This document shows, piece after piece, positions 1,286 to 32,012 of a stretch of 64,000 nt of DNA. Source of the DNA: Promethearchaeota archaeon (lineage in GTDB: Archaea; Asgardarchaeota; Lokiarchaeia; Sigyniarchaeales; SOKP01). A program made the translations under genes and the position numbers. The DNA lies in contig JAHPZE010000004.1 of NCBI GenBank assembly GCA_019058365.1, forward strand, positions 128,001 through 192,000, in the 5' to 3' direction. The notes under the pieces are model-generated. The model was not told the DNA's origin and did no database searches. It saw nothing but the letters and a program-made list of their open reading frames with translations. Each line of letters opens with the position of its first letter. Position 1 is the stretch's first letter.

Positions 1286-1555
1286 GTGATGCAAAAAATG
1301 TGTAATAATTGTAATTGTGAAGCATATGACCAATGTTCCATTGTTGGTTATATGCCAGTTGGATTCTGCTGTACCAAATGCTATCTTTACAACGAGCAAC
1401 ATACATGTTTAGAATCGAGGTCAAAGGGAAAAGCTTCTAAGGTTGAGCCTGTGAGCGCCAAAATCGAGGATGGTGTTTTGAAAGTTGTCGTTATGAAGGA
1501 TAAAAAAGAAGTTCCTTTAGTGATTGACTTAGATAAACAATTTGGTTCTGAATAG
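1286..1555 (+). CDS. Small Cys-rich putative metal-binding protein
   Basis: CNNCNC..C..CCTKC..HTC N-terminus; C-terminal SAKIEDGVLKVVV. Confidence 0.7.
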   Translation: MMQKMCNNCNCEAYDQCSIVGYMPVGFCCTKCYLYNEQHTCLESRSKGKASKVEPVSAKIEDGVLKVVVMKDKKEVPLVIDLDKQFGSE

Positions 1556-1618
1556 AAATTTTGTAATTCATTTAATTTACTTTTTGTTACATCCTGGCAT
1601 TCTGAGAAATAGGAAAAA

Positions 1619-1699
1619 GGTCAGCTCTCTGATACCTCCTTGAAGAAGGGTTGAACAGTGATTGAGGTGAGTATTCAACGGAAAGGGTCAGGGAACTGG
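1619..1699 (+). ncRNA. Structured ~80-nt repeat element, copy 1 (candidate ncRNA / integration target)
   Basis: About 85% identical to copies 2 and 3; closing stem CAGCTCTCTGAT/GTCAGGGAACTG; internal hairpins CCTT-GAAG-AAGG and GTTGAA..TTCAAC. Confidence 0.6.
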
Positions 1700-2020
1700 T
1701 GGTAGAATTGTGTGTTCAAGTAATTCGGATTTATAAGAGAACCTTTTACCCTCAATAAGAAATTTGGAAATATGTAATTGATTCTATTGAAAAGAAAAAA
1801 AAATGAAAAATTTAGCTTTTTTGATCTGTTTGTGTTGATTTTTACTTGATTGAAAATTATATAGACAATTGCTTAATATTTAGGACAGATTTTTTCAAAA
1901 TTGCTATTATCAAATTATCTTTATCTAAAGATCCTTAGCCCTTTTAGAGATTCTTGTTAATATAAAGATTTTAAAAACTCTTTGAGTGATTAAATTTATA
2001 TATAATAAGGTTATATAAAT

Positions 2021-2490
2021 ATGTTAGAGATCATAGCTAAAAATTCAGAAAAATTTACAAAAGATTATGGGAAAAGGATTTTTGCAAAAGATGAGGGAAT
2101 TGAAGTTGATTTACAAATTAATAATTTAGCTGACTTCAAGTAGCCTTCAAATTTGAAATGGTGGCATCCTCTAGCCCCAATATAAAAAAAATCGAAAATC
2201 TTGAAACTCTAACAAATTTAGAATATTTAAGACTTAATAGGGGAAGAATCTCAAAAATTGAGAATCTGGAAAATCTTACGAACTTGAAGTTCTTGGATCT
2301 TAGCATCAACATTATCTCTGAAATTGGAGGGTCGGAAAGTCTCAAGAACTTAAAAGTTTTACGATTTGGGAACTCATTTGAGTTAAGTGGAGAAAATGTT
2401 ATTAAAGAAATTGAAGGAGCATGATAAAAGATCCTAAGATTTCTTTTTCCTAACAAAGTAAATCTCTCTATCATTAACGTTTTTAATATC
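2021..2490 (+). pseudogene. Degraded leucine-rich-repeat protein (paralog of 5574..6362)
   Basis: ATG at 2021, in-frame TAG near 2140, frameshift into LRR ORF 2158..2424 (IENLETLTNLEYLRLNRGRISKIENLENL), premature stop; 3' boundary approximate. Confidence 0.7.
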
Positions 2491-2512
2491 AACAATGACT
2501 ATTTATATTCGA

Positions 2513-3004
2513 TTATGCCCTCTCTCTGTCTTTTTTTTCTACACTCAATTTAAAAATTTTACCTAATTTATAATCAAGGTAAAGATTCCTTCTTCTCAGT
2601 TCTTCACTGTTAGCGAATATTATCTTATCGAGAGATTCTTGACTTAGATTTAGGAGTTGTTTTAATTTTTCTTCTGTTATTTCTGATACTGTTTTAAAAA
2701 TCTCATACATATTATCAATAGCTTCTTTCTCAAAGTTATTCAGATCTCTTAAAAATTTAACGTCTTTTAATTCAGCAATTAATTGCCTTCTTATCCCCTC
2801 AATATCAATATTTAACTTTTCTTTAATCTTTTCTGAATTTTTATTAATGTACCTCTTAATGATTTTGTTAGCATAATAGCTTAATGAAACATCTTTTCTA
2901 TCACATATTTTTTTCAAAAGAATATATTCAATTTCATCCATTCTCACACTTAATACCTTTTTCTCCCTTACTTTTTCATCGTCATCCTGACTCATATTAC
3001 TCAT
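2513..3004 (-). CDS. Putative ribbon-helix-helix (CopG/Arc-like) DNA-binding protein
   Basis: N-terminal KKVLSVRMDEIEYILLKKICDRKDVSLSYYANKIIKRYI fits the beta-alpha-alpha RHH pattern. Confidence 0.55.
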   Translation of the reverse strand: MSNMSQDDDEKVREKKVLSVRMDEIEYILLKKICDRKDVSLSYYANKIIKRYINKNSEKIKEKLNIDIEGIRRQLIAELKDVKFLRDLNNFEKEAIDNMYEIFKTVSEITEEKLKQLLNLSQESLDKIIFANSEELRRRNLYLDYKLGKIFKLSVEKKDRERA

Positions 3005-3401
3005 TATGGAGATCTTTTAAAATTAGTAATTTAATTTGAAAGTCATAATATTTCATTAATTATATTATAATCATTTTGAATTAATTATTTATATTTAACG
3101 AATCATTTTGCATCAAACTTTTATAATTCTGTTAGCTTTAATTATTTAAATAAAAAAGAAATTAAATTAGTTAATAATTCGTTAAATTACAGGGTATTAA
3201 AACAGAATTTATAAATACTATAGATTTTTATATTAAGCTTTCTCAATTTCAATCGAATATAAAAAAACATATTAGAAATAAAACTGTCGGAACAATAAAG
3301 CTAAAAAATTATGAATAATTTTAAATAATTAGTACATTATTTAGAACTAAAAGAGTCTATGGGTATTTATTATAAATATTACTAAAAAAACGGTTTAGGT
3401 C

Positions 3402-4094
3402 ATGTTAAAAAGAATGAGAATACCTGAAGATGATTTAAAAATATTAGAAAAATTTGTTCAACTACCATCTGAGCAACAAGATTTCATTTTACAAGAACTT
3501 ACGGAAATTTCTCCAACAACTCCATTAAATATTATTGAAAAAAGAATCTCAAATAAATCGGACTACAAATTTGAAGATATCCATGAATTCTTTAAATTTT
3601 TAATCAACTTCTACATAAACTTCTTCTATTTTAAAGACTCAATTGATAATTTTAATGAGGAAGTTATTATACCTTCAATCATTCTACACAAATCAAAATT
3701 GAAATTAGCAGAACAAGATTATGAAAATATTAAATTAGTATCAGCAAAAATTTTAAGTTTAGATAAAAATATAGGGATAATATCAAAAATACCATATTTA
3801 TCTGAGGAAAATCCAAATAACTATATGAAATCTCATATTATTACGGATTTAAGATATATTTTTTATAACGATCCTAGTGAAATTCCAGATTATGCATTGA
3901 TAAAACATACTTTTAAGATTGATTATATTAAATCAAGAAAAATAGAAGAAGCATTTTATACTTTAAATTTAAATGATATAATTGAATTGAAAAAAAATAT
4001 TGAAAGAGCGATTGAAAAAGAAGGCTCGTTAAAAGAATTATGTAAAAAAAATAAAATAAATTTATTAAAAGAGGAGGATGTCAATGGATTATAA
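3402..4094 (+). CDS. Hypothetical protein, possibly prokaryotic COMMD-like (helical N-domain + COMM-like C-domain)
   Basis: C-terminal ITDLRYIF..LIKHTFKIDY..EAFYTLNLNDIIELKKNIERAIEK: three strands followed by a long helix. Confidence 0.45.
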   Translation: MLKRMRIPEDDLKILEKFVQLPSEQQDFILQELTEISPTTPLNIIEKRISNKSDYKFEDIHEFFKFLINFYINFFYFKDSIDNFNEEVIIPSIILHKSKLKLAEQDYENIKLVSAKILSLDKNIGIISKIPYLSEENPNNYMKSHIITDLRYIFYNDPSEIPDYALIKHTFKIDYIKSRKIEEAFYTLNLNDIIELKKNIERAIEKEGSLKELCKKNKINLLKEEDVNGL

Positions 4095-4497
4095 AACTAT
4101 CAATGAATCTATCTATAATTTAAAAGATTTAAGAATAGGAACTTTAGATATTTGGAGATCAATTTCCGAAACTAATAGAAATATCAAACATACAACAAGT
4201 GAAATACTAACATGTAAAAGTTATAAAAATTCAGAATCAATAAACGAAAAAGTAGATGTTAATAAAAAAGAAAATGATGATTCAAACCAAGATTTTCCAA
4301 TTCTGAAACCAGATAATCAAGAGCTCGTTAAAAGATATGCTGGAAAATATATTGGAATCATCGAAAATAAACTTGTTGCTGTCGATACAAATATCCGTAA
4401 ATTAAAAGAAAAGGCAAAAAAGGTAATGAAAAAAGGTCAACGATGTTATATTGAATATATTGATGATGGTGTTTCAATATATGGACTTGGTATTTAG
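4078..4497 (+). CDS. DUF5678-like protein
   Basis: C-terminal NQELVKRYAGKYIGIIENKLVAVDTNIRKL pattern; upstream of a retropepsin, the usual context for this family. Confidence 0.6.
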   Translation: MSMDYKTINESIYNLKDLRIGTLDIWRSISETNRNIKHTTSEILTCKSYKNSESINEKVDVNKKENDDSNQDFPILKPDNQELVKRYAGKYIGIIENKLVAVDTNIRKLKEKAKKVMKKGQRCYIEYIDDGVSIYGLGI

Positions 4498-4957
4498 ACA
4501 AGAAGAAGCAATAATAAAAGAAGATCGTTTTAAAGATGTAACACCCCAAAAAAGGAAAGAATTTGGGAATTCATCTAAGTATAGAATTAATTTAATTTTT
4601 AAGAAAAATTCAGATTGGGAAGAAGAATTTCCTGTTAAATTTAAATTTGACACAGGAGCTTTTCTTTCTTTTGCTCCAAAGAAACTAATGGAAGATTTTA
4701 GTATCCCAACAGAATTTAGTATGGAAGTTACAGGTATACATCCTGAAAAAAAATGTCGTGTTTTAGTTAAAATCGGAAAAATGCTGTTTAAAATATTAGA
4801 TGATAATGAATTAGAATCCGATGAATTTGAAGCATGGTTTGCATTTCACCCTTTTGAAAAAGGAATGCATTTACTTGGAATGAAAAGTATTATTGAAGAA
4901 ATCGAGTTTCATCAAGATCCTAAAAGAAAAATTTTAATCTTAAAAACAGTTCAATGA
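4481..4957 (+). CDS. Retropepsin-like (clan AA) aspartic protease
   Basis: FDTGAFLS catalytic motif and C-terminal LLGM; ATG at 4481 preferred over the TTG at 4451. Confidence 0.75.
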   Translation: MDLVFRQEEAIIKEDRFKDVTPQKRKEFGNSSKYRINLIFKKNSDWEEEFPVKFKFDTGAFLSFAPKKLMEDFSIPTEFSMEVTGIHPEKKCRVLVKIGKMLFKILDDNELESDEFEAWFAFHPFEKGMHLLGMKSIIEEIEFHQDPKRKILILKTVQ

Positions 4958-4972
4958 ATTTTTGAAGATTAA

Positions 4973-5406
4973 ATGATCTAATTAAAGACAAAAGATAAAG
5001 GAAATAACGTAATTTATATTTCAATAAGTCGAGATATTTTTATCTTAAGTATTTCATTTTCAATCATATTTCTCATTTTAGAGTTTGTTAAAGATTTATT
5101 TGATGTCGCTTTTATTAATCTAAATTTCACTCCTTTAATTGTAGGAGGTTCAGTAATCAATTTATCCATAATATTAATTTTTATTCTAATAAAAGGAAAT
5201 AAAATGAATGGTTAAAATCCGAAGAGAGACGATTAGAAACTTGGATATTTTTCTTATTAGCTATTTTGGTTGAATCCATATTAAATATAATTTTAACAAC
5301 TGTTAATATAATATTATCATTTTCTTTCGGGAAATTAATCAAATTTCTTATACTAATTTCAATCATAGTATTATCTGCATTTTATTTTAAAAAAAATGAT
5401 ATTTAA
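4973..5406 (+). pseudogene. Disrupted ~4-TM membrane protein, fourth gene of the protease operon
   Basis: ATG ATC TAA, then an open hydrophobic frame (..DIFILSISFSIIFLILEF..LIVGGSVINLSIILIFILIK), frameshift near 5205, then ..WIFFLLAILVESILNIIL..FLILISIIVLSAFYFKKNDI*. Confidence 0.5.
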
Positions 5407-5573
5407 AGGAAAAAAAAATAAAATCAAGGAATTTTTTCACATTTATTTAATTTTACTAGCTCCTTGGATTATTGAGATTGGAGTAATTTCCGATTTTTCT
5501 CACTTTTAGAAAATCTCTAAGTTTTTGGGGCACTTAAATTTAAATATGAAGGTTTTATATAGATATCTTTGGA

Positions 5574-6362
5574 ATGATGGATGAAAATTCAAAAGAATAT
5601 GTTGTTAATCGAGGAAAGAAATATTATGTTGAGGATAATAGGTTAGACCTAACTAGTAAGACAGATATTGTACTTTCTGAGGTGGAAGGGCTCGAAGATT
5701 TAGTAAATCTGGAGGTGTTATCTCTCAAGGAGAATAGCATTCATGAGATTGAGAATCTTGAAAACCTTACGAGCTTAAAGGCTTTAGATCTCAGCATGAA
5801 CTACATTACTGAGATTGAAGGTCTTGAAAGATTAACGAAATTAACAAGTTTATTATTTGGTGATGGGGATGAAGGTGGCAATCCTATATCAGAGATTAGA
5901 GGACTTGATACGCTAACGAGTTTACGATATCTATACTTCGATTCTAACGAAATATCAGAGATCAAAGGGCTCGAAAATCTTAAGAGTTTGGAGTTCTTAA
6001 GTTTATTTGATAATAAAACTTTAGAGCTTAAAGGTCTTGAAAATTTAACAAACTTAAAGAAATTAATTCTAAGCAATAATAAGATTACGAAGATGCAAGG
6101 GCTAGAGACTCTTGGAAAATTAGAATATTTGGATCTATCATATAATAATATAGTAGAGATTAAAGAACTTGAAAATCTAATGAATCTAAAAGAATTGGAT
6201 TTGAGTTATAATAAAATTTCAGAAATTAAAAGGATAGAGCATCTAGTGAATTTAGAGAGATTTAGCATTTATGATAATCCGATTAGGAGGATCTCAGGGA
6301 TTGATTCTCTAAAAGGGCTAAGAATCTTTGGAATAGATAAGCTTTTACAGGACGACCAATAA
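5574..6362 (+). CDS. Leucine-rich repeat protein (SDS22/internalin-like)
   Basis: About nine 22-aa repeats LxxLxxLxLxxNxIxxIxGL. Confidence 0.9.
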   Translation: MMDENSKEYVVNRGKKYYVEDNRLDLTSKTDIVLSEVEGLEDLVNLEVLSLKENSIHEIENLENLTSLKALDLSMNYITEIEGLERLTKLTSLLFGDGDEGGNPISEIRGLDTLTSLRYLYFDSNEISEIKGLENLKSLEFLSLFDNKTLELKGLENLTNLKKLILSNNKITKMQGLETLGKLEYLDLSYNNIVEIKELENLMNLKELDLSYNKISEIKRIEHLVNLERFSIYDNPIRRISGIDSLKGLRIFGIDKLLQDDQ

Positions 6363-6437
6363 AGATTAACGAATAATTTATTTAAGTGATCGTAAAAACC
6401 ATAATTAAAAGAATTTTATATGAAATTATTTATTATA

Positions 6438-7733
6438 TTAATGGAAAATATGTTCAAGTATCATTCTAAGATTTTCTATCTCTTTTATAAGCAATTCTTC
6501 TTTTGGTATTAATTTATAATTATGTGTTCCAATATCTCCCAAAGAGATCAACCTTTTTGCTTGTTGCATAAAAGTTTTATTAATAAAGTTAAGATCTTGT
6601 GCTATTTTTGGTATCTCTTTGAGACGTTTATATTCACCCTCCTCATTCTTATATTTATCTAATTTGTGTTCCTGTTCTGCCTTAAGATAAAATGCAGCTT
6701 CAATGATTTTTCGCATTAGAATTTGTGTCGCAACCTTACAATCATGATTATATACAGTTTCAAGTTCATAAATTAGGTTTTTTATATCTTTTGGCATCTT
6801 TTTTTTATCTGAATCATCAAAAAAATATATAAAATCTCCGGGATATTTTTGAGGTTTCTTAATTTCTTTATATAAATCAGAATCTAATCTTAAATCTAAC
6901 TCGAAAATAGAGAGATTTAACATTATTTGCAAAAAAATAAATAGCTGTTCAATTGATTTGCGATCATACTTTAACCAACTTCTTAAAAAATTAGAAATTG
7001 CAATTTTCCCGAGTTTATATAATTTATTTTCCTCAATATTAAATCTTTTTAATAAATCTATATTAAATGTGATTACTTCAAGTGTTTCCAAATCATCAAT
7101 CCTTTTTTCGATTAATCTCTCTAAGATTAAAGTTAACCTATTACTTTCATCTTTGAAATACTTGATATCATCATATAAGTCTGATAGAATGAGTTTTATC
7201 AATAAATAATGAAGAGTTTGTATAAATTCAGAATTTGAAAAATTTTCAAGGATATTGGCTTTTTTTAATTCTTTATTACATCGATCATTTAGTTTAAGAA
7301 TCATTAATCTATCCTTCTCAAGCTCCATCTCCTTAATTTGATATACTAAAAAGACGTATTTTAAATAAATAATACTATTAAAATCATGTTCACTAAAAAT
7401 TATATCAATTAAATCCATTAACATTGAAAACAAATCAGAGGAATTAATTGTTTCATATTTGTTTAAATATCTTAAGCAATCTAGTCTATGATTTAAATCA
7501 TCTTCTAGATGCGTTTTAAAAGGTTGTTTCAACGAAGATGTTAAGGATTCAACTAAATCTGTATCTTTAAAGTTCTGACCAATTATGTGATGCTTATCTA
7601 CGTTTTTTATTATAGAATATAGAAATGGATTCTCTAAAAAAATAGAAGTTTCATTAATTTTCGTGACAATATCTATATCATTTAGTAGATCTAACAAAGA
7701 AACATCAATATTATCAATTCTAATTCTGTACAT
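6438..7733 (-). CDS. Argonaute-associated putative effector: helical N-region + C-terminal DUF4145/HEPN-like domain
   Basis: ELETVYNHDCKVATQILMRKIIE...AKRLISLGDIGTH resembles DUF4145; ATG at 7733 overlaps the Ago stop (TAATG). Confidence 0.65.
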   Translation of the reverse strand: MYRIRIDNIDVSLLDLLNDIDIVTKINETSIFLENPFLYSIIKNVDKHHIIGQNFKDTDLVESLTSSLKQPFKTHLEDDLNHRLDCLRYLNKYETINSSDLFSMLMDLIDIIFSEHDFNSIIYLKYVFLVYQIKEMELEKDRLMILKLNDRCNKELKKANILENFSNSEFIQTLHYLLIKLILSDLYDDIKYFKDESNRLTLILERLIEKRIDDLETLEVITFNIDLLKRFNIEENKLYKLGKIAISNFLRSWLKYDRKSIEQLFIFLQIMLNLSIFELDLRLDSDLYKEIKKPQKYPGDFIYFFDDSDKKKMPKDIKNLIYELETVYNHDCKVATQILMRKIIEAAFYLKAEQEHKLDKYKNEEGEYKRLKEIPKIAQDLNFINKTFMQQAKRLISLGDIGTHNYKLIPKEELLIKEIENLRMILEHIFH

Positions 7734-9148
7734 TATAAAAACCAAGGTGTATTTTTCAAATTATCATGAGGTTTTATTTCATACTTACTGAATTTTGCTA
7801 TTTGATGGGCAAATATTAAAGATGCTGGTAACCGAAGTTCATTATGAGTAACTGTTTGATAGTGAAGTCCTGTTAGTGTAAATATATCTTGGCAAGCATC
7901 ATAAAAAGACCTATAACAATCCTTATTTATTCTCATATTTATTAATAAAGGGCGAGGAGTGCCCATTTCATGAGGTTTAGATCTGATTTTTCTTGCTCTT
8001 GCATAATTATAATCTCCAGTTGTACATAGATATCCAAAAACTTCACTTAATTGAGAACAAATACCTCTGTCTATATTTTTATTCATTTTATCTAAATTAA
8101 AAGATCTTAGAATGTTTTTATCGAATATCTCCACTAAACAATAATTCCTTATACTTGTATCTTTAAATTCCTTCTCAAATCCCGCAAGTTCTTCTTTTCC
8201 AAATACTCCTAATTTTTGAATTGTTAATTTTTCTATTGGATTTGAACTCCTTTCTTGATGTGAGAATAATGTCTCATGGATGATTTTGCGAATTATGATA
8301 TTAGGTACAAATAATCCTGAAGTAGTCATTTTAAAATCATCTTTATGGAGTTCTAATTCCATATCAAAATAAGTATTTGAATAATAACCCATAAACCTTC
8401 CAATATTGTTGAATATTGAAACAAAACCAGTGGTATACCCTCTTTCTTCATTTCTAGAAAATCTAATAGCAAGTGTAATATCTACATTGTGAGGGTTTTT
8501 TAGTAACCAGGGAATACCACCTGCTTTAGAATAAATCGAAATGCAAATGTTCCATAAAATATAAGGCAAACCTTTAGAATCACTAATCTTTGTTAAGACA
8601 CCCCCATAAGTATCTCCTTGATAAAGTGAGAGATATTGTATAGGATAACCCATTTTGAGACAAAGTCTTTTTAGTTTATAATAATTATTAGTATTTCTTA
8701 TTGCTCTATAGTCTTTTCCTACTGCTAATACAACATATTTTGTGTTTACAGGCTGTTTTTCTACTGGATAAATACTTGCTAATTCATTAATTATAATATC
8801 TTCTCTACCATTTTCATAGATAATTACATCTTTCTTATCTTTAGGGATATCCAATTCATCTAATTTGAAAAATGTCTTTAATCCATGAAAATATGTTCCA
8901 TATCCATTTTTTATATAATTGAGTAATTTTAGTGAATTATCTATCGCAGATTCATCTTTCAAGCAGATAAGAATTAATTTTAATTTATCAAATAATCTAA
9001 TTTTAGCGTTAAAATCATATGGGCCAAAATTTTGAATTCCTTCCATAGCGTCATTTATTTTTTCTCGTTGACCTGTTTGAAATAAAAGATTTGGTTCAAG
9101 AAATTTAACAATTTTTTTTGATTTTAAATAACTCGTTTGAATTTGCAT
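7733..9148 (-). CDS. ago: Short/pseudo-short prokaryotic Argonaute (MID-PIWI), catalytically inactive
   Basis: EPNLLF..GPYD start, MID pocket YYKLK..GYPIQYL..N..IYSKAGGIPW, GTPRPL, LTGLHY..LPASL, C-terminal PWFL; tetrad positions read LAIRFS and QKLG. Confidence 0.9.
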   Translation of the reverse strand: MQIQTSYLKSKKIVKFLEPNLLFQTGQREKINDAMEGIQNFGPYDFNAKIRLFDKLKLILICLKDESAIDNSLKLLNYIKNGYGTYFHGLKTFFKLDELDIPKDKKDVIIYENGREDIIINELASIYPVEKQPVNTKYVVLAVGKDYRAIRNTNNYYKLKRLCLKMGYPIQYLSLYQGDTYGGVLTKISDSKGLPYILWNICISIYSKAGGIPWLLKNPHNVDITLAIRFSRNEERGYTTGFVSIFNNIGRFMGYYSNTYFDMELELHKDDFKMTTSGLFVPNIIIRKIIHETLFSHQERSSNPIEKLTIQKLGVFGKEELAGFEKEFKDTSIRNYCLVEIFDKNILRSFNLDKMNKNIDRGICSQLSEVFGYLCTTGDYNYARARKIRSKPHEMGTPRPLLINMRINKDCYRSFYDACQDIFTLTGLHYQTVTHNELRLPASLIFAHQIAKFSKYEIKPHDNLKNTPWFL

Positions 9149-9152
9149 TGTA

Positions 9153-9854
9153 TTAGCATTCCCTCTCTTCTATGATTTTTTTAAAAGTCATTATTGTAAA
9201 ATCAAGATGATATTTTTTACCACCACAGAAAAACGAAATTTTAGATATTAAATTTTTAAAAAATACATAATCTTCAATCCTTTTAGACGATCTTGGTAAT
9301 TTTTTATCCTCAATTGAGGAATTAAATTCTACATCATAGATTAGATCTATAAACATATAGACTCCAAATTCTTCATCTACAAAGAATTGAAACTTAAACC
9401 CTACTATTGAATTCCCCAAATTAGGAATAAAAACAGCATTTTCTTTATATTCAACCTCACAATCAATTAAAGGTTCTCTACTTAAAGTACATAAAAATGC
9501 TTCTTTTAATATATTCGGGATAATAAGGTTTTTATAAAAGAAAGTGTTCTGAAAAGTGCAATTGTAATTTATTACTTCTAAATTTTCTAGTTCTGAATAG
9601 TTAATGTGATTAGGATTTAATAATTCCTCTGTTTTCTTAATAAAATTTGTAATAGATAAATCTTGATCAATTCTAAAAAACCATAGATCATCCAAAATTT
9701 GTGTAAATATTATTCCATTCTTACATAATTCCATTTTAACTCTATTATAATTATTAAAATTGCTTCTTGTTAAGCCGTCTATCTTCAAAGATTCTAACTG
9801 ATCAAAAACAGGACCATCTAGTTTAAATAAATCTAAAGCAATTTCTACAACCAT
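9153..9854 (-). CDS. Argonaute partner protein, probable N-lobe equivalent (Aga1/AfAgo-N/APAZ-like)
   Basis: 233 aa, ends 4 bp before ago; IVGFKFQFFVDEEFGVYMFIDLIYDV resembles the Ago L1 hairpin (GF..l.iD). Confidence 0.6.
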   Translation of the reverse strand: MVVEIALDLFKLDGPVFDQLESLKIDGLTRSNFNNYNRVKMELCKNGIIFTQILDDLWFFRIDQDLSITNFIKKTEELLNPNHINYSELENLEVINYNCTFQNTFFYKNLIIPNILKEAFLCTLSREPLIDCEVEYKENAVFIPNLGNSIVGFKFQFFVDEEFGVYMFIDLIYDVEFNSSIEDKKLPRSSKRIEDYVFFKNLISKISFFCGGKKYHLDFTIMTFKKIIEEREC

Positions 9855-10117
9855 ATTATTATTGAACTTTATTAAATTGCGTTAAAATATTTTTATCTTC
9901 TTTTACTTAATAAACAAAATTGTAACGATTTCATTATTTAATAAAACTTATTATTTTCTGGTTATTTGTCATTCCAAAAATGAGGATTTAAAATGGATTA
10001 GTTTAAAATTATAGCGAGGGTAGCAAAATTGGAAGAGTCTAAAATTTTTGACGAAGTTTTTGTTTTGGAATGTCAGTATCTCTTGTATAAAGTCACATCT
10101 TATTGAAAAGTTCTTAA

Positions 10118-10309
10118 ATTTATAAAAGTAAAAATTACAAGTTAGTATCAGGTAATTCTATACTTATTCAAGAAAATTATGGTATTAGCAAAAGCACCGC
10201 ATCGCAATATTTGACTATTTTAGAGCACTATCACCTAATTAAAAGGTAGAGACACGGAGTAAACAAGATTATTAAAATATCTGATTTCGGTAAACTTTTT
10301 ATTGAGTAG
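10118..10309 (+). pseudogene. Decayed winged-HTH transcriptional regulator (ArsR/Csa3-like C-terminus), divergent from the ago operon
   Basis: Manual translation IQENYGISKSTASQYLTILEHYHLIKR*RHGVNKIIKISDFGKLFIE*; TAG at 10247-10249, upstream frameshift/stops. Confidence 0.65.
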
Positions 10310-10344
10310 AGGTTTAAAAAATTCAGTTTAAGAAAAATTAAAAA

Positions 10345-10424
10345 GGTCGGTTCCCTGATATCTCCTTGAAGAAGGGTTGAACAGTAATTGAGGTGAGCAT
10401 TCATCGACGAGATCAGGGAACTGG
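10345..10424 (+). ncRNA. Structured ~80-nt element, copy 2
   Basis: Stem CGGTTCCCTGAT/ATCAGGGAACTG; TATA-like TTTAAAAA at 10313-10320. Confidence 0.6.
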
Positions 10425-10427
10425 AAA

Positions 10428-10448
10428 ATTAATTAAGCGTTAATTAAT
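10428..10448. terminator. AT-rich perfect hairpin ATTAATTAA-GCG-TTAATTAAT (also at 12138..12158)
   Basis: 9-bp inverted repeat right after the element and downstream of a minus-strand gene; terminator role inferred. Confidence 0.35.
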
Positions 10449-10618
10449 GTAAAAAATTTATCAAAATAAAACAAAAATCTATGCGTTTTCTAAATACTTT
10501 TTCTTGAATAGATTTAAAAATATATATTTTTAAAGAAAAAATTAGATTATTTAGAAAAAAAAAAGTTTTTTAAATTTAAATAAGGTATTAACCTAAATTT
10601 ATCAAATATTCAAACTTG

Positions 10619-11872
10619 TTATTTCCATTCCAGAGATTTTATAACAGAATCCATAATATGTACATAACGGCAGTAATCTTGAAATGTACCCTGGAAACCA
10701 AATGTAAACAGAAATTCTATTGGTTTCTTCAATGTTGGATGGATAAGAGTGATGCTATACTTTCTGGTCCAGTAACCCATCCAATATGTCAAGGCTAGTT
10801 GGCTAGCACCACCGTGAAAAATCAGGTGAGCACCCATAACTTCGGCATCCAATCGCGAAATATGCTTCTTTGAATAGTCCAACAGGGCATCATATAATTT
10901 TCTATCATCTGTGGAAACAATATCCATCGATTTGAACTTGGCCAGCTCGGATTCATCGATGCTGAAGTGTATATTCATATAAAACTTCTGTTTGGCCTTT
11001 TTAAATTTAATTTCGAGACCATTTCCGATTTCTCCCAGATAAGAGGTTCCTTTTTGTGTAATCTTCCATCCTGATGCATAGAGGGTAAAAGGGGCTCCTT
11101 TACAGACTCCTTCGAATTTAAATTCAGGTTTTGAGGGTATTATTTCGATTTTAGAAACCGCTGGTGCCACAGTCTTTTTTAAAAAGTTGATTATCTCATT
11201 TACATCGAACGTCTCTACCGATTTACATCCTGCAAGGGCAGGAAACTTTTGGTGAACTTCTGGTTCTGCAGGAATTTTGATTTCAACGATTTTGTCTTGT
11301 CCGTAATTTTGAAGCAACTTCTCAGCTTCATCAGAGCAATAAGGAGATTCTGCGTAAATTTTATTGGTGAATAATATAGCTCGTTCGGAATTAGCTAGTC
11401 CCTCGTCGATAACAGTCTGAAATTGACCGCGATCTTTCAATAAAATCCTATATTCAGCAAACCAGACGTTATAACCACTTGATATTAATTGATCAACGAT
11501 CTACCTAGCGATGTAAACATTCTGGCTTTTGTAACTGATAAAAAAATCGTATTTTTTGCCAGAAACCCCTGAAACTATTTTTTGTGAATTTTTATTAATA
11601 GAGTAATTGAGTTCCAGATTAAGGAGATATTGAACCAAATTCTTTTTCTTCATTCCGCCAGCAACTAGCAAAGGGGTATATCCATTTTTGTCCTTTGCGA
11701 AAATATCCGCACCTGAACCGACCAAAAATTTAGCTATTTCAATATTTCCATAGTATGCAGCTGCATGCAAAAGCGTGGATCCGAAATGGTTTCTTCTATG
11801 AATTATTTCCGGATTTTTGGCAACCATTTCCCTAATGAGTGAATATTGACCATCCCTAACAATGTCCCACAT
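10619..11872 (-). pseudogene. Ankyrin-repeat + TIR domain protein interrupted by a single in-frame TAG (11501-11503)
   Basis: Ankyrin GSTLLHAAAYYGNIEIAKFLVGSGAD; TIR YDFFISYKSQNVYIAR*IVDQLISSGYNVWFAEY..SPYCSDE; the two listed ORFs are in frame and 20 sense codons apart. Confidence 0.85.
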
Positions 11873-12051
11873 AGTATCTATTAATCACCGGTTGATTCAT
11901 ACAATCATGAAATCTGAAACTATGATTATATTGAACATTTCTAAAAATCTAATACATAATAATGACAAAAATGTCTTTATACAAGATGTTCAAATATTTA
12001 AATCTAAATAAATATGATGTATCAATCACTCAAGAAGAAAAATAATAATAT

Positions 12052-12208
12052 AAAGGTCGGTTCCCTGATATCTCCTTGAAGAAGGGTTGAACACTGATTG
12101 AGGTGAGTATTCATGGACGAGATCAGGGAACTGGAAAATTAATTAAGCGTTAATTAATATAAATAATTTATCAAAATAGAAGAAAAATCTATGCGTTCGC
12201 TAAATACT
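12052..12208 (+). repeat. 157-bp direct repeat, right copy
   Basis: Matches 10342..10498. Confidence 0.95.
12055..12134 (+). ncRNA. Structured ~80-nt element, copy 3
   Basis: Same closing stem and invariant core CTCCTTGAAGAAGGGTTGAACA. Confidence 0.6.
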
Positions 12209-12467
12209 CATTTAGCACAATGTTTAAATCTACTTCTGAGTTCTGGACCTTCTTTAAGAGATGTCTGAGCCCATAATCATTCAATAATAACTCAATCAGA
12301 TTCTTATAAATTGCTGTAATATTATCTTTACCAGCTTCATAATAGAAATCATTCTTACTAAGAGTAAGATCCAAAATCTCATATAAGCCTTTTATGGCAT
12401 CCTTTATATTTTCGAAGTTTTTCTCGGCTTTTTCTTTCGATCTAATTTCATATTTTGAACTATTCAT
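12189..12467 (-). CDS. Hypothetical 92-aa helical protein
   Basis: ORF with a strong SD (GAGGTGAG) just upstream. Confidence 0.75.
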   Translation of the reverse strand: MNSSKYEIRSKEKAEKNFENIKDAIKGLYEILDLTLSKNDFYYEAGKDNITAIYKNLIELLLNDYGLRHLLKKVQNSEVDLNIVLNEYLANA

Positions 12468-12474
12468 TCTAACT

Positions 12475-12487
12475 TACTCACCTCAAT
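12475..12487 (-). promoter_or_regulatory. Ribosome-binding region ATTGAGGTGAGTA of the 92-aa gene
   Basis: SD-like GAGGTGA about 10 nt before the ATG; the same 13-mer lies on the + strand at 12097..12109. Confidence 0.7.
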
Positions 12488-12751
12488 TAATATATGTAAA
12501 TGATCATATAAAAATGTGACGCTTTCCGATAATCTGTCCGACTCAAACCGAACACCTCCATCATGAAGATAGTCACTCTTCGGTGCAAATAATTAAATTA
12601 ATTGTTTTAAAGTAGTTACTTATGGATCAATCATTTATTGGTATGCCAAAATACATAAAAATAGATAACGAATATCGATTAAAAGTCGCAAAATCATTCA
12701 ATTAATATTGATTTTTGATCAGAAATACAAAAATAAAAATAAAAAATGTTA

Positions 12752-14248: not shown

Positions 14249-14792
14249 AAATATAATATTTTGTTCAAATTAAGTTCAGAAATAAAAATTAACAATAATT
14301 TAAGTTTAAAATCTTCTATGAAAATAAAATTAATCAAAATATTAAATTCTTTTTAAAAATAAATAATGAATTTTTGTAAATTAATCACCGTTATTCTAGA
14401 AAAACGTATAATGAATGATCATATTTGATGTATAGTACAAAAAGCCATTTAATTATTTTTTAATAATCTGGAAAAAATAGAATTTAATCTATTATATAAA
14501 AATCAAACCTAGACTCATCGTTTTTTAATAAAGGGATAATTAATTAATTTCTGTAAATATTTGGTAAAATCTGTAAAAAATTTGTAAGGAATATAAAAAT
14601 TTAAAAGTATAATCAATAAGAATTATGATACTTTGGATCAAAACTAAATATTTTTAAAGAAAAAAACAGATAATTAAAAAAAAGAAAAGTTTTTTGCTTT
14701 TAAATAAGGTGTTAATATAAATACAATTTATTTTAATTAATAAACAATAAATTTGAATAAAATACTAACAGGTATAATAATTATACCCTATT

Positions 14793-23184: not shown

Positions 23185-26100
23185 TTGTCAGATTCAGTTG
23201 ATAAATCAATAATTTCAGAGCAAAAGTTTGAAACTCTCTTTAAAGGTATGCCTTTTCCTTTATATGTTTGGAAAATAATTGAGAACGATTTGATTTTGGT
23301 TGAGTATAATTATTCCGCTGAAAAAATAACTAATGGTCAAATTAAAAACTATTTAGGATGTAAAGCGTCAGAATTTTATAAAGACCAATTTGAATTATAT
23401 GAAGGACTTTATCAATGTGTAAATTCTCAATGTGATGTTTTCAAGGAAGTTAAATCTATTTGTATAACTTCAGGAGAAGAAAAGTTTTTATCTGTTTATT
23501 ATAATTATATCCCTCCTGATTTAGTTTTAGTTCAAACAGGAGATATTACGGAACGGAAGAAAACAGAACAAAAATTGAAAGCGTCCGAAGAAAAATATAA
23601 GAGTATAGCTGAATTTTTACCAGATATTATCTATGAGATTGATAAAAGTGGGAAGTTGTCTTATGTTAATCCTGAGGGTTATGAAAAATTTAATTATCAA
23701 AAAGATGAAGTCATAGGAAAGATGAGTATGATTCAATTTGTTCTACCTGAGCAAAGAGAAAAATTAATCAGAAACGTAAATAAATTCTTTTCAGGGGAAT
23801 TAATTGAGCCAGATATATATACTTTTCAAAAAAAAGATGGAACCACTTTTTATGGGAGGGTACATTCACGTCCTATCTATAAAGAAGGAAAGATCGTAGG
23901 GATAAGGGGAGTACTTCATGATATTCATGAATTAGTTGAAATTGAAGAAAGATTAAAAAAATTAAATTTGGAATTAGAAAAAAGAGTTGAAGAAAGGACA
24001 AAGGAATTAAGAGAATCCGAAGAACAATATCGTACTATAATAAATTCTTTAGCTGATCCTCTAGATGTCGTAGATAGAGATTTAAAGATTCTCCTGATTA
24101 ATCCTGCTTTTGAATTATGGCTCGATAATTTAGGTATTGAGAAAAATGTTGTAGGAAAGATTATTTTTGAAGCGTTCCCATTCTTACCAAAAGAAATTCG
24201 CGAGGATTATAAGCAAATTTTCGATACTGGAAAACTTCAATCTAGTGAAGGGAGCACTTTTATAGATGATAAAGTAATCATTACTGAAACACTTAGAATT
24301 CCAATTTTTAAGGAAGGGCATGTTAATCAAGTAATGGTTATTACAAGAGATATAACTGAGCGAAAAAGGGCAGAAATGAAAATAAAAGAGTCAGAAGAAA
24401 AATACCGCCTTCTAACAGAAAATATCAATGATCTAATCGCTGTTATAGATGATAAATTCCAAATCGAATATATTAATGAAGAGGTCCATAAGAAAGTATT
24501 AGGTACAACCATAAATGATCTATTAGGAAAAAATATTTTGGATTTTGTGAATCCTGATGATAGAGTGAAAGGGTTTAATTCGTTACTGAATGGCATTAAA
24601 AATAAAGAAGGAATGATGGATATAAGAGTTTTGAATCGAACAGGTCATTACATTTGGTTTGAAGTAAAAGGAAAGGCTTTTTTAGATAATAAAGGAGAAT
24701 TAAAAGGAATATTGATTGCAAGAGATATTACAGAGCGTAAACAAGCAGAAGAAAAGCTTCGAGAGAGTGAAGAACGTTACCGTACATTGGTTGAGACTAT
24801 GACTGACGGGTTAGCTGCCATAGATGAAAATAATAACTTTACCTACATTAATATAAGTTTCAGCAAGATGATTGGATACTCCAATGATGAACTTCTTGGT
24901 ACCCAGGTCTTCAATTATCTTGATAAAAAGAATCAAAGTATAGTAGAAGAACAGTTAAAGCAGCGAAGGAAAGGAGTAACAAAACCCTATGAGCTTGTAT
25001 GGACTCGGAAAGACAGACATAAAGTTTACACAATTATGGCTCCAAAACCGCTTATTGATGTAGAAGGAAATTATGTAGGGGCCTTTGGGGTGATCACAAA
25101 CATTACTGAACGTATAATAGCAGAACAAAAATTGATGGAATCTGAAGCGAAATATCGCAATTTATTCGAAAGCTCTCCTGCTATGATTGTTTTAATAAAC
25201 CCGAATGGAAAGATAATTGACGTAAATCCAGCAACACTGGCACAATATGGATTTGAAAGAAACGATTTTATAAATAAGGATTTTAATGAGCTAAATAACT
25301 ATCTACCGGAGAATTTGCCTTTTTTGGTAAAGAAATTTAAAGAACTATTAATTGAAGGCATCTTGGAACCTATTGAACTTCCATTTTATACCAAAGACAA
25401 AAATATCATTTGGGTTAATATTCAAGGATCTTCAGTAAAGATTGGTGATGAAACTTATATTCAAACAGTAATACAAGATATTAATGAGCGGAAAATGGCA
25501 GAATTAAAAATAAAGGAATCAGAAGAGAAATTAAAAACATTAAATGATACTTTTCTAAAATTCACAGATGATCCCCTTAAAAATATACAATTACTTGTCG
25601 AAGCAGCAGGAAAACTAATTTCTAGTGAATGTGCTACGTATAATAAACTAATTGATGTAAATGGAAAAGAAATATTAAAAACTATTGCAATATGGCAAGA
25701 ACCAACAGACCTTAAACGCGAAGATAATCCAATTGGGCATATATTTACAGACATAATCAATATGGGTCTCGATGAGATTGTCATATTAAAGGATTTAGAC
25801 AAAACAAAATATGCGAAAACTGATCCAAATGTTCAAAAATATAATTTAAAACAATATTGCGGTATTGCAATAAGACTAAATAATAAACCAATTGCATCCT
25901 TTTGCCTATTGTATACGAAAAATAGAGAAATGAGTGAGGTCGATAAAGATATAATAAGAATTCTAGCTAAATCGGCTTCTATTGAGGAACAACGGTTATA
26001 TTCTTATCAACAAATTAAAGAATCTGAACATAAATTTAAATTAATTTTTGATTCTATCCCAGATCTCTTTTTCTTAATAAATAAAGAGACAAGAATTTTA

Positions 26101-27477
26101 TCATTTAGAGGAAGAGAAGAAGATTTCTATGTACCATCAGAGAAATTAATAAATAGTAAATTAAACGAACTACTTCCGGGAGATCTTGCTGATCGTAATT
26201 ATATTGCTGCTCAGAAAACATTATTAACAAAACAACCTCAGATAATCGAATATGAATTACCAATATATGGAGTAAATAGATATTTTGAGGCACGTCATCT
26301 TTATTTTTCTGAAAATCAAGTGGCTATATTTATACGTGAAATAACAGCTCGTAAAAAAGCAGAACAAGAATTAATTCAATCAGAAGAAAAATATAGACAA
26401 CTATTTGAGAATTCCCCCGAAATAATTGTATTAACAAGCCCAGATGGAGTTATTTTAGACGTTAATTCAGGTATTGAAAAAACTCTCGGTTTTAAAAAAG
26501 AAGAAGTAATAGGACACCCTTATTACAAATTTGGGATATGTGATTCAAATCAAATATCTATAATTAAACACAGATATGAAGATTCATTATTAGGAAAAAG
26601 AAAAAAGTTTGAGGAATTCCAAGTAAAAAGAAAAGATGGCAGTAGTTTATGGGTTTTATATCAGACTACAATTGTCAAATTAGGAAATCAACATTGTATT
26701 CTTACTATGGCACAAGATATCACTGAGATAAAAAAGGCAGAAAAATTAATTGAACAAGAACTTATTAAACTTAAAGAACTTGATGATATAAAAAATGAAT
26801 TGATTACTCGAGCTTCGCATGAATTAAAGACACCATTAACCTCTATTTTAGGTTCTACAGATTTACTCTTAACTTTATATCATGATGCTTACAATAATGA
26901 AATAAAAGAACTTATTAATATGATACATAAAGGAGCAAAAAGATTAGAAAATTTAATCAAAAATACAATAGATATTTCACTTATAGAGTCAAAAACTATC
27001 TCTTTTAGGAGAACAAGGGAGGATATTGGGAAACTTATTAATGAATGTATGGATGATTTGATATATTTAGCTGACAAAAGGGAATTATCATTTGAAATTA
27101 ATATCCAAGAAAATGTTTTTATTCAAATTGATAAAAATAAAGTTATACAAGTAATAAAAAATATAATATCGAATGCTATAAAAAATACACCTCTAAAAGG
27201 AAAAGTTTCAATCAATTTAAAAAGAATGAAAAAATATATAGAGATATCAATAAAGGATACAGGTGTAGGATTTACTGGAACTGAATTACAAAGAATTTTT
27301 CAAAAATTTGGAAAAATTGAAAGATATGGTAAAGATTTCGATGTGGATATAGAAGGTCCAGGACTTGGATTATATCTAGCAAAACAAATCATTGAAATGC
27401 ATAAAGGCAAAATTTGGGCAGAATCTGAAGGATTACATAAGGGAGCAACTTTTATTATCGAATTACCAATTGACTAA
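23185..27477 (+). CDS. Multi-PAS/GAF sensor histidine kinase
   Basis: Repeated DITERK..ESEEKYR linkers, SHELKTPL, NAIK, DTGVG, GLGL. Confidence 0.93.
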   Translation: MSDSVDKSIISEQKFETLFKGMPFPLYVWKIIENDLILVEYNYSAEKITNGQIKNYLGCKASEFYKDQFELYEGLYQCVNSQCDVFKEVKSICITSGEEKFLSVYYNYIPPDLVLVQTGDITERKKTEQKLKASEEKYKSIAEFLPDIIYEIDKSGKLSYVNPEGYEKFNYQKDEVIGKMSMIQFVLPEQREKLIRNVNKFFSGELIEPDIYTFQKKDGTTFYGRVHSRPIYKEGKIVGIRGVLHDIHELVEIEERLKKLNLELEKRVEERTKELRESEEQYRTIINSLADPLDVVDRDLKILLINPAFELWLDNLGIEKNVVGKIIFEAFPFLPKEIREDYKQIFDTGKLQSSEGSTFIDDKVIITETLRIPIFKEGHVNQVMVITRDITERKRAEMKIKESEEKYRLLTENINDLIAVIDDKFQIEYINEEVHKKVLGTTINDLLGKNILDFVNPDDRVKGFNSLLNGIKNKEGMMDIRVLNRTGHYIWFEVKGKAFLDNKGELKGILIARDITERKQAEEKLRESEERYRTLVETMTDGLAAIDENNNFTYINISFSKMIGYSNDELLGTQVFNYLDKKNQSIVEEQLKQRRKGVTKPYELVWTRKDRHKVYTIMAPKPLIDVEGNYVGAFGVITNITERIIAEQKLMESEAKYRNLFESSPAMIVLINPNGKIIDVNPATLAQYGFERNDFINKDFNELNNYLPENLPFLVKKFKELLIEGILEPIELPFYTKDKNIIWVNIQGSSVKIGDETYIQTVIQDINERKMAELKIKESEEKLKTLNDTFLKFTDDPLKNIQLLVEAAGKLISSECATYNKLIDVNGKEILKTIAIWQEPTDLKREDNPIGHIFTDIINMGLDEIVILKDLDKTKYAKTDPNVQKYNLKQYCGIAIRLNNKPIASFCLLYTKNREMSEVDKDIIRILAKSASIEEQRLYSYQQIKESEHKFKLIFDSIPDLFFLINKETRILSFRGREEDFYVPSEKLINSKLNELLPGDLADRNYIAAQKTLLTKQPQIIEYELPIYGVNRYFEARHLYFSENQVAIFIREITARKKAEQELIQSEEKYRQLFENSPEIIVLTSPDGVILDVNSGIEKTLGFKKEEVIGHPYYKFGICDSNQISIIKHRYEDSLLGKRKKFEEFQVKRKDGSSLWVLYQTTIVKLGNQHCILTMAQDITEIKKAEKLIEQELIKLKELDDIKNELITRASHELKTPLTSILGSTDLLLTLYHDAYNNEIKELINMIHKGAKRLENLIKNTIDISLIESKTISFRRTREDIGKLINECMDDLIYLADKRELSFEINIQENVFIQIDKNKVIQVIKNIISNAIKNTPLKGKVSINLKRMKKYIEISIKDTGVGFTGTELQRIFQKFGKIERYGKDFDVDIEGPGLGLYLAKQIIEMHKGKIWAESEGLHKGATFIIELPID

Positions 27478-27690
27478 GTATTCAGTAATATGTTTTTTAC
27501 ATTACTAGTTTGTCCGAAAGAAGGTTTTATTAAAAAAAATACGAGAACATTACTAACTACTAATGCTAATAGACTTATTACTAAAATTTTTAAGATTTTC
27601 TTGTTAGATTTTGACATAATTATCATGTAAAATTAATTGAATTTAGCAATCAATAATAAATAGTTCTAAAAAACATTTTTTATTATTATG

Positions 27691-28536
27691 TTATAAATGT
27701 TTTTCAAGCCATACAAACATATCTTGATATACTTGAGCTCTGCCCTTTTCATTCCATAACTCATGGAGAAATCCATCATATTCTCGATAAGTCTTGTCTT
27801 TACTTCCAATTTGTTCGAAAAATTCTTTTGACTTTTCTTTATCTATAATCTTATCATCACCAGCTTGCATTATTAATACAGGGCATAGTAAATTTGATGC
27901 ATTATCGATCGCCCATTTTGAAAATCTATCAATTTCTGTGGCCGATTTGGCTGAAATTACTTCAATTTTGTGTTTATCTACAATATGTTGTCGTAAGATT
28001 TTTAAATCACTTGTTAATTGATTCTGATCAATAATATTATCTAATATCTTATTAGGAGCTAATTTAACAAGAGTTTTTGATAGTGATTTTATAACTTTTT
28101 TTCCCATTGATAGTTTTAAAAACATACCTAAAAGTGGTGAGGAAACTAATACTCCTGATAATTTCGGGTGATGTATTGCATAAATTAAACCAACTAAACC
28201 TCCAAAAGAATGACCCATCAAAAATATTTTTTTTTCTTTAGCAATTTCGCGGATTAAATCCATAAAAAGAAGTGTATCTTTTTGGATGTGATCCATGCTC
28301 TCTATATGGCCGAGTAAATCACCAGTGTTTCTCCAATGTCCCCGTAAATCAAATGCGTAAACGGCATATCCTTTATTTGTGAAATATTCCGCAAGAATTT
28401 TTAATCTATCAGAATGAGTTCCCCATCCATGAATTGCTATGATATAAGCTTTAATTTCTCCAGAGTCAGGCAACCAATATTGATAGAATAATTTTTTCAA
28501 TTCCCTTCCTTCAAAATATCCAGTTTCATTTTTCAT
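27691..28536 (-). CDS. Alpha/beta hydrolase (lysophospholipase/monoglyceride lipase family)
   Basis: HGWGTH, DLRGH, GHSFGG, HELWNE. Confidence 0.88.
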   Translation of the reverse strand: MKNETGYFEGRELKKLFYQYWLPDSGEIKAYIIAIHGWGTHSDRLKILAEYFTNKGYAVYAFDLRGHWRNTGDLLGHIESMDHIQKDTLLFMDLIREIAKEKKIFLMGHSFGGLVGLIYAIHHPKLSGVLVSSPLLGMFLKLSMGKKVIKSLSKTLVKLAPNKILDNIIDQNQLTSDLKILRQHIVDKHKIEVISAKSATEIDRFSKWAIDNASNLLCPVLIMQAGDDKIIDKEKSKEFFEQIGSKDKTYREYDGFLHELWNEKGRAQVYQDMFVWLEKHL

Positions 28537-28746
28537 ATTTATATCACTTAGACTTTCAAATGAGTATTTTTTGGGTTAATGATAATTTATAATATCCATA
28601 TCTTCTTAATATTATTGCTTTAATGAATTGATAATTAAATTTCCATTTAAAAATAATGCTCATAATAGAAATTTAAAAAAATTTTTATATTATTGGGTAA
28701 ATTTCATAATAAATAATATCTATTCAATTATCTTGGGTTTTATATT

Positions 28747-29334
28747 TTGAGTGAAACAGAAAATATTGAAATCACAATCCATGGTAGAGGGGGAATGGGA
28801 GTTGTTACGTGTGCGGAAATTATTGCAGAAGCTGCTTATTTAAGTGGTAATTTTGTTGATGTACACGCATATCCTTCATTTGGAGCTGAAAGAAGAGGTG
28901 CTCCCGTTCAAGCGTATGCTAAACTCTCTAGAACGGGTACTATATGGGATAGAGCTCAAATAGAAAATCCAAATGTTTTAATAATATTCGATGAGACCGT
29001 TTTAAATCAAGAAATTGCTTTTTCTCTTAGACAAGAGGGATTTTTTATTATAAACTCTGAAAAGGACCCTGAATTTTTTGTTAAGTTATTTGACTTAAGT
29101 AGTGATACCAAAATAGTTGCCGCAGATATTAGTAAACTAGCAATAGAGAAAGATCTAACTATTGAGGGAAATCCAGTAATTAATACTCCTATTCTTGGTT
29201 TACTTTCAAAAGCAATACCTGATTTAAATTTAAACAATTTAAAAACAGTTGTTGTTAAACGTATGGGTGAAAAAATAGGTAAACTCAATTATGAATTAAT
29301 TGAACAAGGCTATAATTTAGCTAAAATTTTATAA
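28747..29334 (+). CDS. porG: 2-oxoacid:ferredoxin oxidoreductase gamma subunit
   Basis: HGRGGMGVVT, FGAERRGAPV. Confidence 0.9.
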   Translation: MSETENIEITIHGRGGMGVVTCAEIIAEAAYLSGNFVDVHAYPSFGAERRGAPVQAYAKLSRTGTIWDRAQIENPNVLIIFDETVLNQEIAFSLRQEGFFIINSEKDPEFFVKLFDLSSDTKIVAADISKLAIEKDLTIEGNPVINTPILGLLSKAIPDLNLNNLKTVVVKRMGEKIGKLNYELIEQGYNLAKIL

Positions 29335-29354
29335 TCTTCTTATCCAGAGTGTTT

Positions 29355-31982: not shown

Positions 31983-32012
31983 TTAATAATCTCCTTTTAA
32001 ATATATTTATTT

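Follow-up and report, generated by a model that had tools for sequence, protein, structure and literature searches.

A window of 64,000 nucleotides from a Promethearchaeota archaeon (contig JAHPZE010000004.1, positions 128,001 to 192,000 of the forward strand; "the window" denotes this whole stretch) contains three copies of a structured element between a gene for a Cys-rich 89-aa protein (cys89) and a gene for a 92-aa protein (p92). All three were in + orientation, at 1619-1699, 10345-10424 and 12055-12134, and two blocks of cargo genes lay between them. The copies were 85%, 86% and 95% identical in pairwise comparisons and, as a preliminary description of this DNA had reported, shared an invariant 22-nt core, CTCCTTGAAGAAGGGTTGAACA. 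Related genomes and contigs are cited below by working labels beginning with G or L, and the features at the locus are as follows.

1286-1555, plus strand: cys89, Cys-rich 89-aa gene, the conserved left flank marker, which converges on p92 in the empty-site state.
1598-1741: element copy 1, in which an A-rich tail (1598-1618) and the hairpin (1619-1699) are followed by 42 nt of G003-type spacer; it adjoins cys89 and is a displaced chimera.
1742-10323: cargo block 1, with a leucine-rich repeat (LRR) fragment, an RHH-like gene, a DUF5678/protease operon, an LRR gene and a HEPN-like/PIWI/Ago-N operon; absent from G005.
10324-10498: element copy 2, in which tail, hairpin (10345-10424) and spacer are followed by 20 nt left over from the p92 3' end; displaced, left of the Ank-TIR insert.
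10499-12033: cargo block 2, an Ank-TIR gene split into two open reading frames (ORFs), with flanks; the sole cargo in G031 and L199, with remnants in G005 and G061.
12034-12188, minus strand: element copy 3, the proposed working copy, which would read as the 3' untranslated region (UTR) of p92 (spacer, hairpin 12055-12134, U-rich tail).
12097-12109, minus strand: apical-loop core, ATTGAGGTGAGTA on the plus strand and UACUCACCUCAAU on the minus strand, complementary to the region of the p92 ribosome-binding site (RBS).
12189-12467, minus strand: p92, 92-aa gene, which always adjoins a full element copy.
12475-12487, minus strand: Shine-Dalgarno (SD) region of p92, which reads AUUGAGGUGAGUA in the mRNA and is separated from the downstream ATG by 7 nt.
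12506-12514, minus strand: putative TATA-like box of p92, read from sequence only, with the motif TTTATATA kept in relatives.

The closing stem of the element was 12-13 bp long, and its G+C content was 49% compared with 13-33% in the flanks. A BLAST search and a covariance model built here gave a copy number of three for the 4.74-Mb genome, with all of the copies in the window. No Rfam family was matched at gathering scores in the 64-kb window or at E<=1 in positions 1400-12600, and ARAGORN returned zero tRNA or tmRNA genes in the window. Identity as a tRNA or tmRNA was rejected on this blank result and on a closing stem unlike an acceptor stem. Readings as a C/D-box, H/ACA or hammerhead-like RNA were rejected by eye, as box motifs and spacing did not fit, and a conserved mini-ORF after the SD-like core was rejected because its start codon varies. 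The element was earlier described as a novel, unannotated structure that is richer in G+C than its surroundings, has a long closing stem and does not fold as a tRNA, and that description holds.

The repeat was found to be larger than earlier stated. Copies 2 and 3 shared 165 nt (10334-10498 and 12044-12208, 92% identical) that spanned the spacer and reached 20 nt inside the 3' end of p92, and an A-rich flank of about 22 nt 5' of the stem was common to all copies. Each stem arm (1624-1635 and 1688-1699, and likewise in copies 2 and 3) was an interrupted palindrome, TCAG-N4-CTGA, and a single arm could self-fold, with 4 bp closing a GGAA (GNRA-type) loop. Such arms may permit an alternative fold or serve as a symmetric site for protein binding.

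A search of 151 genomes of the order with the element covariance model (52 of this genus, 42 of one sister genus and 57 others) gave matches in 22 genomes of this genus, three of the sister genus and none of the others. An archaeal SSU rRNA was identified in the genome studied here, and the relatives bearing the element were metagenome-assembled genomes of Promethearchaeota/Lokiarchaeota. Every copy with mapped surroundings, in genomes and in metagenome contigs, was located in the same synteny of hdrC-like gene, cys89, element(s), p92, lpd and rab. Species with a distant cys89 (at most about 50% identity) had neither element nor p92 there, and their cys89 adjoined lpd or rab. An exact-pattern scan of genome contigs matched four non-Promethearchaeota records, which are presumed to be chance matches, and the same kind of scan gave no element matches in a viral collection. 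Carriage of the element on viruses or plasmids was rejected on the lack of viral matches and on metagenome matches with recognisable flanks being all chromosomal and syntenic; contigs L183, L196 and L198 were without recognisable content and L184 consisted of the element alone.

A cargo-free order of 89-aa gene, element and 92-aa gene, which the preliminary description had envisaged in relatives, was found at no fewer than nine single-copy empty sites in four genomes (G034, G083, G101, G119) and five metagenome contigs (L177, L186, L187, L193, L197). The empty site is probably the ancestral state, because it is present in both genera. Occupied sites held two to six copies around unrelated cargo, and in G003 there were five direct copies and one inverted copy beside lpd. 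Direct copies separated unrelated cassettes as in attC arrays, with cassettes of 1.2-2.5 kb in G003, G009, G025, G027 and G031. The variable cargo and the empty sites, together with the chimeric copies described below, bear out the earlier proposal of a recurrent insertion or recombination site.

The conserved fold was a single long irregular hairpin, in which 87% of cells were paired over 34 full copies compared with at most 52% in slid controls. Helix P1 was formed by GGTCAGTTCCCTGA with TCAGGGAACTG and helix P2 by CCTTGAA with TTCAA(C)GG, and the apical loop held TGAGGTGAGTATTCAACGGA. Both-sided changes occurred at seven pairs, the best being pair 26-75 (C-G, A-U or G-U in the 34 copies), and one base pair was lost jointly from both arms in two diverged copies. 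The three-way junction with a CCTT-GAAG-AAGG hairpin that had been drawn earlier was the minimum-energy fold of copy 1 alone, and the inner hairpins proposed with it fell in a region that varies among relatives. Stem differences had also been described as mostly G-U on the plus strand. This was so in the window, where 2/3 were G-U on the plus strand and the third C.A, but not across the family, where the departures over the 34 copies comprised 48 cells of G-U on the plus strand and 41 of A-C on the plus strand (that is, G-U on the minus strand), with no strand bias. Minimum folding energies were alike for both strands and, given the balanced wobble counts, the stem therefore says nothing about the strand.

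Strand information came from the relationship with p92. This gene encodes a predicted three-helix protein (pLDDT 89.5) with homologues confined to Promethearchaeota; the structure model had no fold match in the PDB, and matches to Pfam and NCBIfam were all sub-threshold. The element was located 55-80 nt past the p92 stop codon in constant orientation to p92, and the p92-element unit was intact even where flipped relative to cys89, in G029 (L079, 8568-8996) and G011 (L082, 6789-7206). The flipped units are consistent with inversion between oppositely oriented element copies. On the minus strand, 39 of 49 copies had at least four U directly after the hairpin, compared with 4 of 34 on the plus strand.

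The core of the apical loop was the reverse complement of the p92 SD region, with complementarity of 11-13 nt in all 24 genome loci and 15 metagenome loci analysed. The genome contained the 13-mer common to loop and RBS at three sites, two of them element copies and the third the p92 RBS, and contained GAGGTGA only 244 times. Predicted loop-RBS duplexes had energies of -16 to -25 kcal/mol in 22 of the 24 genome loci compared with about -9 to -11 for shuffled sequences; the values for G024 and G064, where the extracted UTR window ended at GAGGTGA, were -12 to -15 compared with about -7 for shuffled sequences. Two compensatory changes were identified: U-A to C-G in G034, and G-C to A-U in G083, G101, L179, L186 and L188. 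At the latter position G.U intermediates were present in G001 and L187, and no A.C pair was found among the loci compared. At the sequence level the loop thus covaries with the p92 RBS, as a putative minus-strand partner would. With a 16S rRNA 3' end of GAUCACCUCCU, the loop is an imitation of the anti-SD sequence. A plus-strand small RNA had been proposed in the preliminary description; the U-run, the linkage to p92 and the covariation with its RBS all point to the minus strand instead.

Paralogues of p92 were present at two to five per genome in many genomes of the family. One of them, outside the window (G000:C39:219196-219387), was 31% identical and had an ATTGAGG-like RBS and no downstream hairpin.

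Recombination within the element was evident from chimeric copies. In copy 1, the 5' half most resembled cys89-proximal copies from G005 and G027, and the 3' half, with the 42 nt of flank, most resembled G003-type copies of another lineage. The first copy of G062 was a similar chimera, the 3' half of which bore an uncommon TGAGGG arm that moves together with a DUF5680 cassette. This cassette, bounded by element pieces, was the last in the G001 array and the first in the G062 array. The chimera junctions were located within the invariant core; no longer stretch is identical between the lineage flavours. An HUH-type nick after TATT was rejected as an explanation, as the apparent breaks were diverged full-length cys89-proximal copies with a decayed 3' arm. 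The G062 copy at 1792 was an internally deleted copy resulting from a microhomology deletion.

A tandem LRR-element duplication was present in G003. The duplicated unit was polar, with a fixed end on the U-run side, about 22 nt past P1 and just beyond the U-rich tail, and a variable end, which took in 42 nt of spacer in copy 1 and the spacer plus 20 nt of p92 in copy 2, 63 nt in G008 and 84 nt in G061. Integrative elements duplicate att sites at the 3' ends of tRNA, tmRNA and protein genes, tandem islands included. The polarity seen here is what att duplication at a functional unit's 3' end produces, and it fits a unit that ends at the U-run. As in those systems, one end carried the complete target and the inner and far ends carried partial copies displaced from it, the repeated block began at differing points and stopped at the target's functional 3' end, and insertions accumulated one after another; direct repeats of the 3' part of the target surrounded the insert, and relatives had empty sites. 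In contrast to them, no integrase was found inside the island among the window proteins and scanned cargo proteins, the target would be the 3'-UTR hairpin of a protein gene rather than a tRNA, and no extrachromosomal element with the site was found here.

The 3' end of lpd is a second insertion point with the same polarity. Fragments of the lpd 3' terminus (approximately aa 420-498) were duplicated beside the full gene in G003, G024, G064 and L185, with a polarity like that of the p92 unit (L078+L118, corresponding to G003:C7 at about 91.2-93.2 kb; L042 9016-9216; L093 7608-7778; L185). The inverted element copy of G003 was located between the lpd fragment and the lpd gene. An 83-nt direct repeat (10516-10598 and 14640-14722, 83% identical) was a piece of the lpd-rab intergenic region copied to the left of Ank-TIR, and it shows local scrambling at the locus.

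The cargo itself was highly variable. In the closest relative, G005, the flanks were 97% identical in DNA, the 8.7-kb block and copy 2 were missing, and a stub of the ankyrin gene was kept. The ankyrin and TIR parts in the window were adjacent minus-strand ORFs (10619-11440 and 11501-11872), and the same pair was present in G031 and contig L199. Cargo was unrelated between genomes, with 74 ORFs falling into 54 clusters. Immune-like and other proteins in the relatives included SIR2-TPR, TIR, LRR, Ras/Roc, lectin and DprA-like proteins, and further cargo included enoyl-CoA hydratase, hydrolases, GNATs, ferredoxins and regulators. The cargo mixes immune-like with ordinary metabolic genes, and the label "defence island" used in the preliminary description is therefore too narrow. 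The second cassette of G003 (L078, 5276-7409) encoded a DprA/SLOG-like protein (PF02481, E 4e-54) and a weak phosphoribosyltransferase match, a gene pairing that looks defence-like. The window also contained a pair of 30-nt inverted repeats (1924-1953 and 6303-6332) with 90% complementarity; a minus-strand LRR gene akin to the one at 5574-6362 seems to have left its 3' end behind as the left arm. Farther along, at positions 23500-34700, both strands carried repeats with a period of about 375 nt (families D1 and D2), which look like PAS-type domain repeats of large sensor genes.

We propose, with moderate confidence, that the element is a 3' module of p92 with a self-pairing loop, which doubles as the recombination anchor of a cassette-like island. 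The element would be the hairpin of a module of 110-165 nt that closes the p92 transcription unit on the minus strand, in the order stop codon, spacer of 55-80 nt, long irregular hairpin (about 85 nt) and oligo-U run. On that strand the apical loop would show UACUCACCUCA and could pair over 11-13 nt with the SD region at the 5' end of the same mRNA, a putative 5'-3' lock that would mask the RBS much as in the icaR mRNA of Staphylococcus aureus. In icaR a 3'-UTR motif resembling the anti-SD sequence pairs with the SD of its own mRNA and blocks translation initiation (PMC3868564). The p92 module shares with it a 3'-UTR motif that resembles the anti-SD sequence and is complementary to the SD of the same mRNA, and here the motif is conserved and covarying. 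It differs in that the organism is an archaeon, the motif is located in the apical loop of a conserved 85-nt hairpin just before a U-run, the complementarity is longer, no RNase III step is expected, the pairing is a prediction from sequence, and the module is also duplicated at island junctions. An intrinsic terminator would likewise have a G+C-rich stem followed by U4-5 on the p92 strand, but the hairpin is far longer than such a terminator requires and carries a 20-nt invariant loop.

The ancestral arrangement would have been one module between the convergent cys89 and p92. Foreign DNA would then have entered repeatedly by recombination within the module, with crossovers in or near the invariant core of about 20 nt and host homologous recombination as the probable catalyst. 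The simplest route would be a single crossover with a circular DNA bearing its own copy of the module, which would leave the module duplicated on both sides of the insert. In the window, copy 3 would be the working copy, and the displaced copies 2 and 1 would mark two insertions, those of Ank-TIR and of the LRR/protease/Ago block, respectively.

Several points weigh against this proposal. Transcription of the p92 strand, the ends of the transcript and the lock are all inferred from the DNA, and the covariation of loop and RBS rests on two events in related genomes. The wobble counts of the stem favour neither strand, and the RNAalifold consensus was weak, with a separate alifold run in Python no better. 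Archaeal termination relies on the U-run alone and does not need a hairpin. The element is missing from the more distant p92 paralogues, which finish at plain T-runs, and no equivalent hairpin was found downstream of them; the element is thus not essential to the family and is a lineage-specific addition. On the side of recombination, the cys89-proximal copies have kept the 5' half and core and have a decaying 3' arm, which the proposal explains loosely, and some cargo edges lie off the element, for example the left edge of Ank-TIR at the TIR stop codon. A core of about 20 nt offers little length for homologous recombination, circular intermediates were not observed, and the source of the first cargo was not found.

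The direct arrays lend themselves to a second reading, which we regard as possible at a clearly lower probability. The element would be an attC-like folded site of an integron-like cassette array, and cassettes would be excised as circles and reinserted at the copies by a site-specific recombinase encoded elsewhere or in trans. Integrons, mostly as integrase-less attC clusters, have been reported in Archaea and as enriched in Asgard (PMC9668308); the genomes studied here were not found under searchable names in the supplement of that paper. The likeness to attC arrays is considerable, in that direct imperfect palindromes of 60-140 nt separate small and often co-oriented cassettes of unrelated genes, and arrays can lack a neighbouring integrase. 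Direct arrays here reached five to six copies with cassettes of 1.2-2.5 kb, the cargo genes of G003 were all co-oriented and each was followed by a copy, and one cassette occupied different array positions in two genomes. The chimeric sites with a junction in the conserved core, the palindromic arms with some compensatory changes (pair 26-75 and the joint base-pair loss in two copies) and stem departures without an RNA strand bias are also as expected for a DNA site.

The attC core motifs R'' (RYYYAAC) and R' (GTTRRRY) were, however, not found at the outer ends of the palindrome when the sequence was read for them. The arms read GTTCCCT and AGGGAAC, the opposite arrangement to attC, and the sole GTTGAAC was located in the variable middle of G000-clade copies; a canonical attC was rejected on this misfit. 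No IntI was found. The genome encodes two tyrosine recombinases (PF00589), on contigs C7 and C46, both away from the window. The C46-type, the only one that is not Xer-like, was sporadic (10 of 54 genomes) and absent from most element-bearing genomes, and a dedicated tyrosine recombinase was rejected on its failure to track the element. Recombinase and transposase families had no match among 10 window proteins and 40 cargo proteins scanned from 20 relatives. Not just the structure but also the sequence, with its 20-nt loop, is highly conserved, unlike in attC arrays. The p92-linked element also departs from those arrays in its one fixed chromosomal locus with one to six copies, in several multi-gene cassettes, in the length of some cassettes (up to 11 kb), and in duplicated segments of variable length that enter the neighbouring p92, and some cargo edges lie away from the element.

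A bolder reading, which we consider rather unlikely as a whole, is that Loki-type Asgard archaea possess their own cassette platform with one fixed chromosomal landing pad. The junction element would be both a recombination site, used by an unrecognised recombinase or a hairpin-directed host pathway, and a translational-lock RNA, and Ago, TIR, SIR2 and other genes would be shuffled between lineages through it.

Somewhat less probable again is that the element is a passive passenger at a permissive intergenic spot, with extra copies arising by local segmental duplication and no causal part in the gain of cargo. Local duplications are indeed many (the p92 and lpd 3' fragments and the 83-nt lpd-rab piece), and the tandem LRR-element unit of G003 and the internally deleted copies, such as that of G062, would be at home in such a setting. 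A bystander would not be expected on both sides of the cargo at every occupied site examined and in exactly one copy at each empty site, nor to show crossovers inside itself, as the chimeras of lineage flavours do, nor to be duplicated in a unit with a fixed end.

The plus-strand reading of the preliminary description, a free-standing small RNA with a three-way junction that serves integrative elements as a tRNA-like attachment site, is in our judgement improbable. It draws on the G-U differences of the stem in the window, on the terminal pair 11-90, which alternates between U.G and U-A on the plus strand, on G031 and G008, whose alternative 3' arm has changes that are likewise G-U on the plus strand, and on the att-like direct repeats around cargo. 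The three-way junction was not conserved, however, and the family-wide wobble counts gave no excess for the plus strand. A plus-strand T-run after the element was found in just the four copies noted above, a T5 run lies between the cys89 stop codon and the element, and covariation with the p92 RBS agrees with a minus-strand reading. Neither an integrase in the scanned cargo nor an element copy on a viral or plasmid-like contig was found. A MITE or REP-type mobile repeat, to which the short length, higher G+C content, inverted-repeat arms and repetition of the element might point, is hardly credible given one to six copies per genome, always at one locus (three in this genome), without target-site duplication or dispersal.

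The gain and exchange of accessory and immune genes in Asgard archaea are little understood, and this locus provides a natural series from empty sites to six-copy arrays, with a defined 85-nt element at every junction and no mobility gene found. Here the idea that a conserved RNA-coding patch can anchor gene flow is open to testing. For the annotation of these genomes the element is a reliable border marker of the hypervariable island and, if the proposed lock is true, p92 may be the first archaeal mRNA with a 3' hairpin that pairs with its own RBS.

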